A stretch of DNA of 64,000 nucleotides from NCBI GenBank assembly GCA_040776945.1, contig JAXGZN010000001.1, forward strand, positions 1,024,001 to 1,088,000, read 5' to 3'. The position numbers and the translations under genes are program-made. The DNA comes from Methanomassiliicoccaceae archaeon (GTDB lineage: Archaea > Thermoplasmatota > Thermoplasmata > Methanomassiliicoccales > Methanomassiliicoccaceae). Shown piece after piece: positions 3,676-9,858 of the stretch. The first letter of the stretch is position 1. Each line of letters starts with the position of its first letter. The notes below the pieces were generated by a model that saw nothing but the letters and a program-made list of their open reading frames with translations, was not told the DNA's origin and did no database searches.

Positions 3676-4233
3676 TCAGGCTACCAGCAGCTCGGCCTGT
3701 CTCAGCTCCTCGGCGAGCTTTTCGACCGCGACCCCAACGTCCTCAGGTCTCCTCGCGCCGGTGCACACCAGTCTCCCGGACCCGAACAGCAGGATGACGA
3801 CCTTGGGATCGTCCATGCGGTAGACCAGGCCGGGGAACACCTCCGGCTCGTACTCCACCCGCTCCAGGCCCAAGGTGATGACCACCGATGCCAGGTTGAT
3901 CGGGCTCTCCAGGTTGGAGGAGGCCACTATGTTCTGCACCTCCACAGTCGGCGATCTCTCGACCTTGACCCCTGCCGCCCGCACGCTCTCGGTGACCTTG
4001 TCGACCGCGATCTGCACATGCTTCAGCGTCTTCGCGCCGGTGCACACCAGCTTGCCGCTGCGGAACAGGAGGGTGGCGGTCTTGGGGTTCTTCAGCCGGA
4101 ATACCAGCCCGGGGAACGATTCAGGATTGTACTCCGATCCAGGCATGGACTGGACCAGCTTGCTGAGGTCAAGCTCGCATCCGAGGCTCGCGGACGCCAC
4201 TATGTTCTGTATCTCGTAGTTGGTAATATCTAT
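3676..4233 (-). CDS. tbp: TATA-box-binding protein (start uncertain: GTG 4200 or non-canonical ATA 4233)
   Basis: Two repeats, EYNPESFPGLVFRL...LLFRSGKLVCTGAK and EYEPEVFPGLVYRM...LLFGSGRLVCTGAR, each preceded by a QNIVAS strand. Confidence 0.95.
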   Translation of the reverse strand: MDITNYEIQNIVASASLGCELDLSKLVQSMPGSEYNPESFPGLVFRLKNPKTATLLFRSGKLVCTGAKTLKHVQIAVDKVTESVRAAGVKVERSPTVEVQNIVASSNLESPINLASVVITLGLERVEYEPEVFPGLVYRMDDPKVVILLFGSGRLVCTGARRPEDVGVAVEKLAEELRQAELLVA

Positions 4234-4783
4234 GCCCCGAGGCGGGTAGGTACTTCCCTATATAAGCCGGAAGTGCCTGCCTTCATCCCGATCGTCGGAC
4301 GTTCGGCCCTTTTCATCCACATAGTTCGAGTTTTTTACCTGCGCCCGCAGGTTGCAGGTCGCGCCCGACCCGTGGTGGAGGAGCTGTCACGCACCCATGG
4401 TTCGGCCTTATGGCCGAGCACGGAGAAAGCCATCGGAAGAAGGACAAGACCATGGGGCTAAACATCGGCCTCAAGTACTGTGGCTGCGAGGTCATCGCTC
4501 CCCTTATGATCAAGCTCGCCAGGAAGCACGTGCTGCCCGTCGGACGCCCTGGACGGCCGGTAGCATGATGGTGATAGGGAACTTCCGGTGCATCGAAGGA
4601 GGGCTTCTCGCACTGTCCGCCCCCGCTTCACCTTTCCATCAAAGCCCTTCAGCTCCACGTTCTTGTCCTTTCTAAAGGAGGAAGCCTTTAGCAATAATTG
4701 GGCGAGCGTCATCCATCGGTCGACCCCTTGGCCCTGGCCTCTCTTAGGACTGTTCCGAACGAGCACCGATGCCATTACGGCAC

Positions 4784-5014
4784 ATGGATGTTGCATGTGC
4801 CATGGATTTCAGTGCTCGGGCCTCCTACGAGCCGCCGGAGGAGAACGGGCCTCTGGAGGCGCTCAAAGACCGCTTCCAGTTCCACTATCACATCGGCCGT
4901 GCGCAGGACAGGGCCAGCATCGTGGAAAAGGCCACAGGCCCCATCTTGCCATATACTTTGGTGGTGCGGGCACCTGGACAAGAAGACCGGATCATAAAAA
5001 TGTTAGATAGATGA
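4784..5014 (+). CDS. Small hypothetical protein
   Basis: Short ORF MDVACAMDFSARASYEPP...IIKMLDR with plausible composition; no recognisable motif. Confidence 0.35.
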   Translation: MDVACAMDFSARASYEPPEENGPLEALKDRFQFHYHIGRAQDRASIVEKATGPILPYTLVVRAPGQEDRIIKMLDR

Positions 5015-5081
5015 CGAAGCCCGCTGCCGCTGCGGCGATCTCTATGGCAATACAAAGGATGGTGATGACAAGCTTGCTCAT
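4992..5081 (-). CDS. 29-aa single-pass membrane microprotein
   Basis: GGGAGG then ATG: MSKLVITILCIAIEIAAAAAGFVIYLTFL*; one hydrophobic helix; below the ORF-track cutoff. Confidence 0.55.
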   Translation of the reverse strand: MSKLVITILCIAIEIAAAAAGFVIYLTFL

Positions 5082-5202
5082 GGCCCTCCCGCCGAACCTT
5101 CTCTCAGAGGGCCGGCTATCTAATCCTTACCAACGTTCCTGCGTCTCCGGGAGAACCATGTTGATATATCCGGGCGTGCTTTTCCCTTATAGGTTGGAAC
5201 AA

Positions 5203-5268
5203 ATGAGCTGCCGTGGCGTCGCCCATCTCTCATCGGTGCGGTCCTTCAGCTCCAGCTTTGTTTTTTGA
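5203..5268 (+). promoter_or_regulatory. Putative Phe-rich leader peptide (21 aa) and structured leader of aroA'
   Basis: MSCRGVAHLSSVRSFSSSFVF*; U-tract TTTGTTTTTT at 5257-5266; hairpin 5270-5296; TATA-like TTGATATA at 5161. Confidence 0.55.
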
Positions 5269-5332
5269 CGGCCTGCGCGTGAGCACGCGGCAGGCCTGAT
5301 CGTTCCATCCTTCGAACACGAGGTGAAATGGC

Positions 5333-6130
5333 ATGAGCTATACTGGAAAGGCAGTGCGCATGGAGAGGATAATCAATAGGGAGACCGGCAGGACGGTCAT
5401 CGTCCCCATGGACCACGGAATGAGCCTGGGTCCTATAGGCGGGCTGGTGAACATGTCAGCGACGGTGGACCGGGCCGCCGAGGGCGGGGCCAACGCCGTC
5501 CTCGGACATGTTGGCCTGGCGCTTCACGGCCACCGCCGGCACGGAAAGGACATAGGGCTGATAATGCATCTGTCCGCATCCACCAGTCTGTCACCGGATC
5601 CCAACGACAAGGTCCTGGTGACATCGGTGGAAGAGGCCCTGAAGATGGGTGCCGACGGAGTGTCGGTGCACATCAATCTAGGCGCGGAGACGGAAGGGGA
5701 CATGCTGCGGGCGCTGGGGGCCACCGCAATGAAGTGCCGGGAGTGGGGGATGCCCCTGGTGGCGATGATGTATCCCCGTGGCAGAAAGATCACCTCCGAG
5801 AACTCCGCCTGCTACGTGAAGATCGCGGCGCGGGCCGCGGCCGAACTGGGGGTGGACATCGTGAAGACCAACTACACCGGGAGCATCGAGACGTTCCGAG
5901 AGGTCACCAGCGGCTGCCCCGTCCCCGTCGTGGTCGCCGGCGGACCTAGGATGGAAACGACCGAACAGATACTGGAAATGGTGCGTGATTCCATAGAGGC
6001 AGGGGGCGCTGGGGTGGCCATTGGGCGCAACATCTTCCAGGCCAATGATCCGGTGGCCATGCTCAAGGCCGTTACAGCCATAGTGCAGGAGGATGCCACC
6101 GTGCCGGAGGCGATGAGGTTACTGAGGTGA
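5333..6130 (+). CDS. aroA': 2-amino-3,7-dideoxy-D-threo-hept-6-ulosonate synthase (DhnA-type class I aldolase, archaeal aromatic pathway)
   Basis: [40 protein letters not shown] (Schiff-base Lys) and GRNIFQ; SD GAGGTGA. Confidence 0.88.
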
Positions 6131-6871
6131 TCATCTCTCCCTCCATCTGGCCTTCCTCAAGCCGATGTACAGGAAGATCGCAGAAAGGGAGATCACCACC
6201 GCCGCGTCCATAAGCATGACCTCTGTGGGAACTACGGTGAAGCCGGCGAGCGCCTGTGCCAGGCGCGCGGTGTAGGTGGTCGGCGATAGGTAGGCCAGCA
6301 CCCGAAATGGTTCCGGTATCAAGGTGAGGGGGTAGTACACCGGGGCCAAAGTGGAGAACAGGGTGGTGATGAGGCGTGAAAATCCAAAGCTCTGGACGAT
6401 GTCCGAGGAGATCGTGGACAGCGCGAACCCCAAGGAGACCGAGGAGAGGAACATAAGCAGAAGTATGATCGCGATGGCGGTGGCCTGGAACCAGGTGACC
6501 GGCACGAAGAGCGCGAACAGTATCACGAGGACGAGCAAGGCAGGAGAACTGTAGACGATCTCAGCAATGGCCATGCCCGCCACGTACGTTCCAGGGCCGG
6601 TCGGGGAGGCCACCACCATCTCCTGGAGCCGAAAGTCGTTCTTCAGATGAGATAGGTCGGCCTGGAGGAACATGCCGCTCTGGAACATAGTCATGATCAT
6701 CCCGCCCAAGATCGCAACGCCAAGGAGATCGCCGTGGCTCACAAAGAAGATGAGGATGAGGAACGACAGGGGAGAGATCAGCGTATTTATCAGGATCACT
6801 GGATAGGCCCTCATCTCGTAGATCGCGTTCACGAGGATGGATGCCAGCAACTGGCTGGAAAGTTTGCTCAA
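6131..6871 (-). CDS. ABC-2 type exporter permease
   Basis: About six hydrophobic segments, APVYYP...SPTTY motif; start overlaps the ATPase stop. Confidence 0.85.
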
Positions 6872-7791: not shown

Positions 7792-7934
7792 TCTAGCTCT
7801 CCTGGGCAGGATATCTAAACGCCTTCCTCGTATAATTCTGATGGGTCGGTAAAGCAGGAACGAATAATATCTGCCGCTTGTTCTCCAAGACAGGCCGAGG
7901 GGCCTATGGCCGGCCTTTAATGCCCTCGAATAAT

Positions 7935-7961
7935 TATTATACTGTCAGATAAAGTATAATA
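7935..7961. promoter_or_regulatory. Inverted repeat, putative operator
   Basis: TATTATACT-N9-AGTATAATA in an AT-rich intergenic stretch. Confidence 0.45.
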
Positions 7962-8056
7962 TCCGTGATGATAACGGGCAGCGGGGAACTAGAGCGCAGC
8001 ATCCCGACGACCCCTGTCCGGTCAGAAGATATGACGCGACCGCATCGCTGACGGAT
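7961..8056 (+). ncRNA. Candidate C/D-box (K-turn) RNA
   Basis: Box C GTGATGA at 7965-7971, box D CTGA at 8048-8051, terminal complementarity ATCCG/CGGAT; internal D'/C' boxes not clear. Confidence 0.3.
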
Positions 8057-8242
8057 CAGTGAAGGGAACGAGGGCATGATGGACAAGCTCACATCGAGTA
8101 AAAAGAGGCTCGCGGCAAGGTTGGTCCGCACGGCGGTAACAGGCCCAATATTCCCCGGTCTCCTGATCACTGCGCGAGGAGGTAATGCGTTTCTCGCAAA
8201 CTGAACGGCATTAAGATGACATGGCTATGAGCGGTTCATCCC

Positions 8243-8275
8243 CGGCGGCGTTGCCCCCGCCGCCGAATTTTTTTT
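8243..8275 (+). terminator. Hairpin plus poly-T terminator
   Basis: CGGCGGCG-N7-CGCCGCCG followed by AA and T8. Confidence 0.65.
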
Positions 8276-9234
8276 ATTTCACTGAGATGCCGAAAAACCG
8301 TAATCGGCGCGGGGCGCTCTAAGGCCTGCCGCCCGATGTCGTGACCACATGGCCATTGTCCCGGCATAGTCCTTCGGCGCAGACAAGGCCGCTCTCATGG
8401 CCCGGCCTGCGCCCGAGCTCACGGCTAACCTCGACCAGGCAGGCCCGCTCATCCATGTTCGGAGTAGGCCGTGGTCGAACAACAGCGTACGCGGAGCAAG
8501 GGATCGTACGCGGCCAAGGTTCATTGGGAATCGCCATCATTTCATTTAGATCGCCTCCGAGCGTCCCCCGCGGCCTAACACAGGCCAGCCTATGCCATTG
8601 CCTCGAGGAGGGTGTCATGAACAGGCCCATAGGCGGAAGTGGTTACGTGGCCCCTGTCCACGCATGGAGGCGATCCCATCTTAGCCCCATTGACGGTCCA
8701 GGCCGATCTCGCCTCAAGGAAGGGGCGGCCCTCGGCGCATGATCCCGGACATGCATCGTTCATGATGGCCCGTGTCCGTCTAAGCAGAGCTGTGGTGACG
8801 CCAGGGAGTAGAAAGGCTCTACCTTCCGGCGAGGTCCGACTAGCATCACGCGGCACCAGGAATTACGGACCGCACGACCTCTCAGCAAGGGGACGCTGAT
8901 GCTTTCGTCTGACACCGGCCCTTGGGCCGGTGAGCAGCTCTCTTAAGTTCAGCAGGGCATGGGCCGCATGAACGTCGACGGTCTGCGGAGACTGCGGTCC
9001 TGGGAAAGAGCGATGCATTTGTCCATCAAACGCCGGGGAACGCACGAACATATCGACCCGAACAAGGCGGTCTGTGAAGCTCCGATACCTATCTTGGAAC
9101 GCCCATTGCGATGGCGATAGGCCCCAGGGCGCCTATTTCCATGCTTCCTGGCGAACCTCGAGTGCCGAAAGGCCGGGCGAAGGCCAAAGACGCTGGTCAA
9201 TCTATTCAAATATTTGAGCGTCAATTCAAAGAAC

Positions 9235-9858
9235 ATGGCCGGCTGCAGGATCGAGATCTCCTACATCGACCCCGATGTGTATACATCCATAGTCAACCAC
9301 GAGCTGAGACGCACCATCCTCCGCAACCTATACGCAATGACCATCGACCGCCCGGTGACGAAGCAGGAGCTGGCAGATCGGACCAAGATAGGCTATCATC
9401 AGCTGAACTACCAATTGGGACACCAGCTGCGTGACTTCTGGAAGGTGGTGGACGAGAGGAAGGTTCGGGGGACCAGGCAGGAGTATCTCGCACCCTCTGC
9501 GCCGGGGACGATATTCATATCTGTAGGCAGGGACGGCAGAGTGTTCGTCGTTGACCCCCTGGCCAACCTGTTCGGGCCCCTTTCCAAGGTGGGCACGCGT
9601 TGCGACGGCTGCTCACCGTCGGACATGGAACGATGCATGGAGTATGTGAAGAGCGGCTGTTACTCCACGGACATATCTCCCGAAGAGAGGGCAACGCTGC
9701 ATGCCAACGGCAGAGAGGGATACATCCGGCCCATGGACCTGGCCATATTAAGCTCGATGAAGGGGGTGGCCAGCGGCAAAGGATGTTCGGTGAGCATACC
9801 ATGCGAGAGCTGCCCGTTCATGCGAAGGGCCATCAAGATAGGAGGCCTTGACGATTGA
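9235..9858 (+). CDS. Winged-HTH regulator with Cys-rich C-terminal domain
   Basis: LRRTILRNL...TKQELADRTKIGYHQLNYQL wHTH, followed by CDGC...C...C...C...CESC. Confidence 0.7.
   Translation: MAGCRIEISYIDPDVYTSIVNHELRRTILRNLYAMTIDRPVTKQELADRTKIGYHQLNYQLGHQLRDFWKVVDERKVRGTRQEYLAPSAPGTIFISVGRDGRVFVVDPLANLFGPLSKVGTRCDGCSPSDMERCMEYVKSGCYSTDISPEERATLHANGREGYIRPMDLAILSSMKGVASGKGCSVSIPCESCPFMRRAIKIGGLDD

Follow-up and report, generated by a model that had tools for sequence, protein, structure and literature searches.

The locus and its gene

The DNA analysed here is a 64,000-nucleotide (nt) stretch, hereafter the window, from a Methanomassiliicoccaceae archaeon (GenBank assembly GCA_040776945.1, contig JAXGZN010000001.1, positions 1,024,001 to 1,088,000 of the forward strand), and the element in question is the region at positions 5191-5311 of the window, directly upstream of an aroA' gene that codes for an ADH synthase. 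This region holds a 21-codon open reading frame (ORF) with phenylalanine codons at its end, a U-rich tract formed by these codons and a hairpin placed just after the stop codon. A previous sequence-only reading had proposed a Phe-sensing leader here, and the features on which it was built (TTGATATA, the ORF, the U-tract, the hairpin and the alternative pairings) all lie where it had placed them. The features of the locus are the following:

5161-5168, + strand: TATA-like box TTGATATA, probable promoter of the leader-aroA' transcript (from the sequence, with positional counterparts in 17 of 17 orthologous regions)
5191-5200, + strand: Box A, AGGTTGGAAC, predicted 5' end of the mRNA and 5' arm of the closing helix A:A' (9 of 10 positions pair with Box A')
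5203-5268, + strand: leader ORF, MSCRGVAHLSSVRSFSSSFVF, 21 codons plus TGA, with Phe at codons 15, 19 and 21 (homologues in 17 of 20 readable regions)
5205-5252, + strand: stem P1, GAGCTG at 5205-5210 with CAGCTC at 5247-5252 (minimum free energy, MFE, folding and covariation)
5257-5266, + strand: U-rich tract TTTGTTTTTT, made of TTT-GTT-TTT and the T of TGA, that is T3-G-T6 (from the sequence)
5270-5296, + strand: hairpin P2, GGCCTGCGCGT with ACGCGGCAGGCC, 1 nt after the stop codon (folding and covariation)
5302-5311, + strand: Box A', GTTCCATCCT, 3' arm of the closing helix A:A' (pairing with Box A)
5320-5326, + strand: Shine-Dalgarno-like GAGGTGA of aroA' (G-A-G/A-G-T-G invariant or nearly so in 17 sequences)
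5333-6130, + strand: aroA' paralogue, ADH synthase of 265 amino acids (aa) (family models and ORF listing)

The identification of the downstream gene as aroA' was confirmed with both curated ADH-synthase models: its product scores 386.3 bits against NF005556 (cut-off 241) and 351.3 bits against the equivalog model TIGR01949 (cut-off 299.45), and so belongs to the ADH synthases. The gene is monocistronic, since the next gene (6131-6871) lies on the opposite strand. An ADH-synthase match is present in all 41 related genomes. Only 18 of these have an aroA' of the window type (at least 69% identity), always together with a second copy of 56-62% identity. In the window's own genome this second copy (locus L191, G000:C2:176135-183301; 370.9 bits against TIGR01949) heads the operon aroA'-aroB'-aroD/E-aroK-aroA-aroC, with tyrA just beyond, whose products include an aroD/E fusion, an archaeal shikimate kinase, EPSP synthase and chorismate synthase. 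The operon adjoins the divergently transcribed gene of a TrpY-family regulator, and the palindrome GCTAGAC-n3-GTCTAGC, an inverted repeat, stands immediately 3' of the TATA box of the operon copy; other genomes of the order (L019-L030) have the same combination of TATA box and palindrome before their operon copy. Across the loci compared, the gene behind the leader is always the extra, stand-alone aroA' copy. With the aroA' of the window, the aromatic pathway has an additional entry enzyme under a control of its own. The chorismate-binding domain of anthranilate synthase (PF00425) gave no match in the own genome, which is 99.84% complete, and was matched in 14 of 14 control genomes. As no such anthranilate synthase match is present, chorismate would here feed mainly Phe and Tyr, and judging from its gene content the organism may make no tryptophan.

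Conservation of the leader ORF

Upstream DNA was read for all 18 window-type loci and for 34 of the 80 genome-collection loci; the 46 left out (L065-L110) are all at most 61% identical to the query, and many are bacterial. At least 80 metagenome loci were scanned by script. Among the matches listed, 22 loci have an aroA' of at least 69% identity; two of these are largely masked, which leaves 20 readable upstream regions, and 17 of the 20 carry the leader ORF, in 17 distinct sequences of 18-25 codons. A conserved short ORF ending in aromatic codons was the comparative test set before the search, and it is what most of the relatives contain. The 17 carriers are 11 members of the window's genus, three from other genera of the order, two metagenome contigs and one metagenome-assembled genome labelled Altiarchaeota. 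The ORF ends in TGA in 15 sequences and in TAA and TAG in one each, and its stop lies 43-76 nt from the aroA' start. In the window the TGA occupies 5266-5268, the distance is 64 nt and both ORFs have the same orientation, which is the arrangement of an attenuator with its upstream co-oriented ORF; in the ORF listing the leader ORF is the tail of a longer in-frame ORF (5011-5268). The peptides have in common an MS(R/C/Y)G-like start and an F-R-S-F-S-F-x-F tail, with a variable middle. A covariance model built on the ORF and P2 (R1) matched 14 of 151 genomes of the order, with one copy in each and always before a window-type aroA', and gave no match in 37 other, control loci, L039 included.

Three loci of another genus (L014, L017 and L018, about 70% identity) are without the leader ORF and share a different promoter, …CAAT(A/C)TTAATCT…, together with a 5' region of about 100 nt that is rich in GC, contains hairpins and has GGAGGTCC as its Shine-Dalgarno. 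From its sequence, this region may be a different regulatory element for the same gene.

Several observations indicate that the reading frame itself has been kept. The leader ORFs are 54, 60, 63, 66, 72 or 75 nt long, at least six length variants that are all multiples of 3, and the ORF frame is open in 17 of 17 sequences, compared with 3 and 8 of 17 for the other two frames. In L034 and L035, ACG replaces the usual ATG, and an ATG within Box A, 9 nt upstream, is in frame; Box A holds an in-frame ATG in many relatives. In L008, the sister of these two loci, the ATG is kept and the Box-A ATG is out of frame, opening a three-codon ORF whose TGA overlaps the kept ATG.

The composition of the ORF is equally distinctive. 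Phe takes up 74 of the 348 leader codons, with 2-6 per ORF, against a background of 3.2%, an enrichment in codons for an end product of the pathway. By frame, the TTY codons (TTT or TTC) number 74 in the ORF frame and 20 and 31 in the others, and shuffled sequences gave 23.3 +/- 4.0, with none of 5,000 reaching 74. Aromatic codons among the last 12 codons amount to 75, 34 and 27 by frame, and in 15 of 17 sequences the ORF frame has strictly more of them than either of the others. The two most diverged members, L111 and L039, have the tails richest in aromatic residues, 8 and 7 of the last 12, two of them Tyr in each case; these Tyr codons favour selection on the codons, because U-richness cannot account for them. 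The ORF of the window, with three Phe in its last 7 codons as had been pointed out, is one of a rare kind, as at least three Phe at that position were found in only 2 of 1,042 comparable small upstream ORFs of its own genome. In the 1,348 ORFs of at least 250 aa in that genome, the share of Phe among residues is 3.2% and that of TTT among Phe codons only 10.5%, in line with the preference for TTC that the sequence-only reading had noted. The leader observation is far more than chance would produce.

RNA structure of the leader

In stem P1 the region of the start codon pairs with codons 14-17 of the ORF (15-17 in the window), and P2 begins 1-2 nt 3' of the stop codon in the aligned sequences. 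In the window, the arms of P2 span 5270-5276 and 5290-5296, with the inner CGCGTG and CACGCG also paired, and the hairpin, previously described as strong, folds at -20.3 kcal/mol (z -3.3), a stability that 1 of 200 shuffles reached. A further pairing in the window joins AACAAA and TTTGTT. Covarying stems had been named as a check of the proposal, and both P1 and P2 covary in the set of 16 sequences used (L039 was left out). In P1, 85.4% of cells are paired and four of nine pairs are changed on both sides; in P2 (helix 2) the values are 92.7% and three of six. For the two helices together, 84.6% of cells are paired versus 33-52% with slid partners, and eight pairs are changed on both sides versus 2.5 +/- 1.1 in shuffles (0 of 500).

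The pairing of Box A with Box A' had also been noticed from the sequence, and it too is present in the relatives. In 12 sequences, 85.5% of the A:A' cells are paired, against 35-59% with slid partners; one pair covaries (AU in five sequences, CG in five), and support comes mainly from conservation. The complementarity of the 5' end with the Box A' region gave z values of -1.1 to -4.2 in 13 of 15 computable sequences and was not seen in L010 and L112, and L039 has an A:A' analogue of different sequence. The helix belongs to the MFE structure of 5191-5311 in the window and of the element in most genus members. The window element folds into a three-way junction that contains the U-run (z -2.18, 3 of 200 shuffles as good), and the wider 5185-5340 fold is unremarkable (z -0.67). 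In 14 of 17 sequences, the predicted pairing of the last 12 nt of the ORF is below the average for the element. As to the alternative pairings, that of CTGCCG (5208-5213) with CGGCAG (5288-5293) does exist in the window, as had been proposed, but is conserved only in its closest relatives. Rfam at the gathering score gave only a tRNA as a match in the whole window, and at E<=10 only two chance snoRNA matches (16 and 14.5 bits) in 5100-5400.

The probable promoter and the U-tract

In 15 of the 17 orthologous regions the first ATG or TTG is preceded, at a distance of 23-26 nt, by an 8-mer with at least 7 A/T, and in the other two, L111 and L040, a TATA-like 8-mer is seen by eye at 26-27 nt. With the usual archaeal spacing between TATA box and start, transcription of the window leader probably begins about 23 nt past the TATA-like box, at Box A, and the predicted 5' end lies between zero and about 12 nt from the start codon. 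Since the TATA-like box is only 23-27 nt upstream of the first AUG or UUG, the leader ORF is probably leaderless or nearly so. Two contigs from RNA libraries, X1 (5217-5692) and X2 (5260-5424), span the junction of leader and gene; these data are assembled contigs, from which ends and levels are not readable, and DNA carry-over is possible. The four runs gave no cover upstream of 5172, and we draw no conclusion from that.

The U-tract of the window has counterparts at the same place in the relatives, with a run of at least four T within 12 nt of the stop codon and overlapping the ORF end in 16 of 17 sequences. These runs of T4-T6 arise from the last TTT codon and the stop: a terminal TTT followed by a stop codon, which begins with T, gives U4, and TTC would not. 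The last codon is TTT in 14 of 17 sequences and never TTC, and the third-last is TTT in 12 and TTC in two, while the upstream Phe codons of the leaders are mostly TTC, as they are genome-wide. Runs of at least six T occur at 0.094 per kb per strand in the own genome. Of 1,003 long ORFs there, 7.2% are followed by a T5 run within 60 nt, versus 0.5% with such a run inside their last 60 nt. The genome also encodes an orthologue of the termination factor aCPSF1 (977.6 bits against TIGR03675, cut-off 580.2; G000:C2:597399-599282), so that both components of an aCPSF1/FttA signal, a tract of U4 or longer and the factor, are at hand. According to the accessible text of Li et al. 2021 (PMC8716108), the KH domains of aCPSF1 bind U4 tracts, and a single U4 tract gives intermediate termination; the portions available of a 2026 review (PMC13675443) describe archaeal U-rich termination signals as needing no upstream hairpin.

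Three other ideas on these sequences were dropped. Runs of at least five T in 5' regions (at least 146 were listed) are too noisy for use. A -1 frameshift signal, U6 plus hairpin, was set aside as U6 occurs only in the window's closest relatives, with a spacer of 3 nt. A T-box-like role for Box A was discarded because tRNA-Phe does not have the discriminator base that Box A would need.

Proposed mechanism

The best explanation of these sequence features is that 5191-5311 is a cis-regulatory leader of the second, stand-alone aroA' gene. We consider it likely that the leader ORF is translated and senses the supply of aromatic amino acids (Phe and Tyr) by way of the ribosome. For the output, termination controlled by masking of the U-tract is a tentative choice, which we hold to be rather improbable if judged by itself; the statement that joins the two, a Phe/Tyr-sensing ORF with U-tract masking as its output, stops slightly short of being probable. 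What the sequences show is the conserved ORF, the covariation of P1 and P2, the kept U-run at the ORF end and the gene context; the translation of the ORF, the transcription start, termination and the response to Phe we infer.

In the proposed mechanism, a ribosome would load on the 21-codon ORF, which has no leader or nearly none and carries many Phe codons (and also Tyr codons in two lineages) in its 3' half. There UUU-NNN-UUU and the U of the stop codon would form a U4-U6 tract acting as a signal for the archaeal RNA polymerase and aCPSF1/FttA. With Phe-tRNA plentiful, the ribosome would finish and leave, P1 and P2 would fold with the tract single-stranded between them, and transcription would stop before aroA'. 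When Phe-tRNA is scarce, the ribosome would wait at the UUU codons, where it would hide both the tract and the 5' arm of P2, and transcription would continue into aroA'. In the full-length mRNA the 5' end could then pair with Box A' and close the leader, the A:A' helix perhaps serving to seal it or to protect the 5' end once the full mRNA is made. Ribosome and termination machinery would thus contest one stretch of RNA, and Phe would be the amino acid that gives such a design for free. Simple intrinsic termination at the U-run has the wrong sign, because a lagging ribosome would raise termination; a run that is exposed after a finished ribosome and covered under a waiting one fits a signal read by a factor. 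Such masking had been suggested in the sequence-only reading, and we tentatively rank it first.

The Phe-sensing interpretation has held up in part: the ORF, the Phe codons, P2 and the U-run are kept in relatives, but the enrichment is specific to the frame only in the 3' block. This is one of a number of points that weigh against the proposal. In the variable middle of the ORF the TTY codons show no frame preference (17, 11 and 18 by frame, in 15 sequences), and the frame bias is therefore due to the conserved 3' block, a segment inherited in common that is at the same time the 3' arm of P1. In 7 of 17 sequences, Ser or Pro takes the place of the Phe that stands five codons ahead of the stop, through an exchange of U and C with which P1 can still pair, and the Phe counts are as low as two in L040 and three in the window itself. 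The leader element is absent from 3 of the 20 readable orthologues (L014, L018 and L043), and R1 adds specificity to the family and no independent members, because all its 14 matches were training sequences. Two heuristic scans of the own genome (1,042 and 86 candidates) revealed no comparable leader ORF before other genes; seven scan candidates were inspected, with downstream genes for which no family searches were made, and their context resembles that of chance ORFs, one of them apparently overlapping a coding sequence in another frame. Nor does pheA have a leader ORF, for which there is no room, because the upstream ORF overlaps pheA.

Further points bear on the start and on the output. 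RNA-library contig X4 (5172-5329) begins 19 nt upstream of the predicted transcription start. L044 has no run of four or more T at all, such runs follow P2 in only 6 of 17 sequences, and a bacterial promoter/terminator scan (the sigma-70 part of which is inapplicable to archaea) found no site with hairpin and U-run in 4900-6300. The termination model leaves the role of P2 unexplained. Finally, the 17 sequences were folded under masks of the size of a ribosome footprint (-15 to +12 around the A-site) placed at the stop codon, the last Phe codon and a middle Phe codon, and in none of these sets did we find a consistent switch of fold or change in the accessibility of the aroA' Shine-Dalgarno and AUG; the loss of P2 under the stop and last-Phe masks results from the construction of the masks.

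Alternative explanations

The conserved closing helix needs explaining, and a switch acting on translation or mRNA stability would give it a function: the ORF would sense Phe-tRNA, and refolding of A:A' would alter access to the aroA' ribosome-binding site or the protection of the 5' end. The z values for the helix, its place in the MFE of most genus members and the free-state MFE that pairs Box A' with the aroA' start region in the window, L034, L035 and L008 all speak for such a switch, and the leaderless poly-Cys small ORFs of mycobacteria are a bacterial precedent, as presented in the accessible part of that report (bioRxiv 10.1101/834739). We nevertheless think it unlikely, because in the 17 sequences the duplex energies of the Phe-rich half with the aroA' initiation region are like those of shuffles (z -1.4 to +1.2), Box A' has no significant complementarity to that region (z -0.6 to +1.3), the ribosome masks changed accessibility in no consistent way, two loci do not show A:A' and the preference for a terminal TTT is left without a reason. 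Somewhat less credible to us is a structured RNA in which P1, the U-rich junction, P2 and the closing helix, arranged as a three-way junction, bind a protein or a small ligand and the ORF is incidental or tolerated. The covariation of P1 and P2, a fold better than that of shuffles, the enrichment of TTY in all three frames of the variable region, which would make Phe a by-product of U/C-richness, and the changes from Phe to Ser or Pro that obey pairing rules would all follow from it. What it does not predict is a frame maintained across six or more different lengths, the presence in 17 of 17 sequences of a start codon at the predicted 5' end or close to it, the ACG/ATG compensation of L034 and L035 and the Tyr codons beside Phe in the two most diverged members; a match to an Rfam family is also lacking.

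The ORF might instead be a constitutive upstream ORF (uORF) derived from a partial duplication of the aroA' initiation region. It would then set or raise expression by ribosome loading, opening of structure or coupling, and sense no amino acid. The leader start does resemble the gene start (ATGAGCT..., window 5203-5213 and 5333-5350), with an identical stretch of 11 nt in L008 and peptides that begin MSYG and MSYTG, and Box A (AGGATGG) resembles the Shine-Dalgarno/ATG region of aroA'; from these likenesses the leader may have arisen by duplication of that region. As a full account we find the constitutive uORF improbable, since the aromatic-rich 3' half, the TTT preference, the U-run and the hairpin abutting the stop are then unexplained and a stop codon 43-76 nt from the aroA' start is far for coupling. 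An arrest peptide, whose conserved C-terminus (…R-S-F-S-F-x-F) would, in the presence of free Phe, keep the ribosome from leaving the stop codon, as TnaC does with Trp, seems very improbable. The C-terminal residues are indeed the conserved part of the peptide and the stop is fixed in position relative to P2, yet the same residues coincide with the 3' arm of P1 and change within the limits of pairing (F/S/P), and L111, L039 and L044 have a different C-terminus. A biosynthetic gene would also have to be turned off by ribosomes that stall when Phe is abundant, for which the structure offers no evident route.

If the Phe/Tyr-sensing leader with U-tract masking is correct, the coupling of transcription and translation serves gene-specific control in archaea, and a U-tract/aCPSF1 signal can become conditional. 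The Methanomassiliicoccales would then have an isozyme-specific aromatic feedback, in which one aroA' belongs to an operon next to a TrpY-family regulator gene and a Phe-rich leader precedes the other. At about 120 nt the element is small; it is also conserved, and its natural variants are informative.

Other observations in the region

A 29-codon hydrophobic ORF, MSKLVITILCIA..., at 4992-5081 on the - strand diverges from the leader promoter and has no family match. Its start and initial residues recur with synonymous-type changes, again upstream of the leader, in L002-L005 and perhaps in L011 and L012, and it is probably, on this pattern, a real gene for a small membrane protein. Between this ORF and the TBP gene (3676-4200, - strand) lies about 0.8 kb (4200-4990) with ORFs without family matches, among them 4769-5014 (+ strand, 81 aa) and 4458-4796 (- strand, 112 aa), and without an Rfam match. 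A second stretch of about 1.4 kb, 7800-9250, has no ORF of more than 103 aa on either strand and no Rfam match.

A conserved, Cys/Phe-rich stretch, M(R/Q)GECFFAGD..., was flagged 145-200 nt upstream of aroA' in eight metagenome loci among the matches listed. Loci with …GECFFA… (L061-L063 and L164-L187) have an aroA' of the Methanomicrobiales type, and the stretch mimics the leader ORF in a simple scan. It is probably the C-terminus of the neighbouring gene, because the frame is open upstream, as read in L061-L063.

Comparison with known systems

The accessible text of Blombach et al. 2021 (PMC8448881) gives no transcription attenuation or antitermination as known in archaea as of 2021. Our own search of the full-text literature found no archaeal leader-peptide attenuator, although subscription journals were thinly covered in it and the result is not proof of absence. 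The aroA' leader could be the first ribosome-mediated transcription attenuator of archaea, one in which the UUU codons would serve both for sensing and as the U-tract that RNA polymerase and aCPSF1/FttA recognise; we regard this claim as unlikely to hold in full.

The leader resembles the bacterial trp, his and phe leader attenuators in having a short ORF directly before a biosynthetic gene, enriched in codons for the product and flanked by conserved, covarying hairpins, and in the proposed mode of sensing, that is, stalling of the ribosome at hungry codons. It differs from them in its archaeal host, in matching no Rfam family and in having no terminator made of a hairpin followed by a U-run. 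Here the U-run is inside the ORF and is built from the sensing codons, and the hairpin comes after the stop. Moreover, this ORF is probably leaderless, and its Phe codons are interspersed (F-x-x-F-x-F-x-F) and do not form a dense run. In the TnaC leader of the tna operon, with its Rho-dependent termination, a ribosome at the end of the ORF hides a termination-factor site beside the stop codon, much as proposed here; TnaC senses free Trp through its nascent peptide and induces a catabolic operon. The signal proposed for the aroA' leader would instead be uncharged tRNA-Phe, the factor aCPSF1/FttA and the gene a biosynthetic one.

A further parallel is offered by the leaderless poly-Cys small ORFs of mycobacteria, which, as far as the accessible text of Canestrari et al. 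(bioRxiv 10.1101/834739) describes them, are sensory small ORFs before genes of the matching pathway with a stalled ribosome as the signal. There, stalling prevents a duplex by which the ribosome-binding site would be hidden, and the aroA' leader showed no complementarity of this kind. Archaeal 5' regions with short ORFs are also known from Haloferax volcanii, where uORFs were detected by ribosome profiling (Gelsinger et al. 2020, PMC7261190), and the part of that report available to us describes no tie of these uORFs to amino-acid codons, hairpins or the regulation of pathway genes. The leader tract also resembles the signals of the archaeal factor aCPSF1 (FttA), with which it shares a U4-U6 tract in a genome that encodes the factor and in which T5 runs are enriched after genes. 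In the accessible parts of the two accounts of these signals (PMC8716108, PMC13675443), the known archaeal U-tracts stand at the 3' ends of transcription units, whereas the present tract lies in a 5' leader, inside an ORF.

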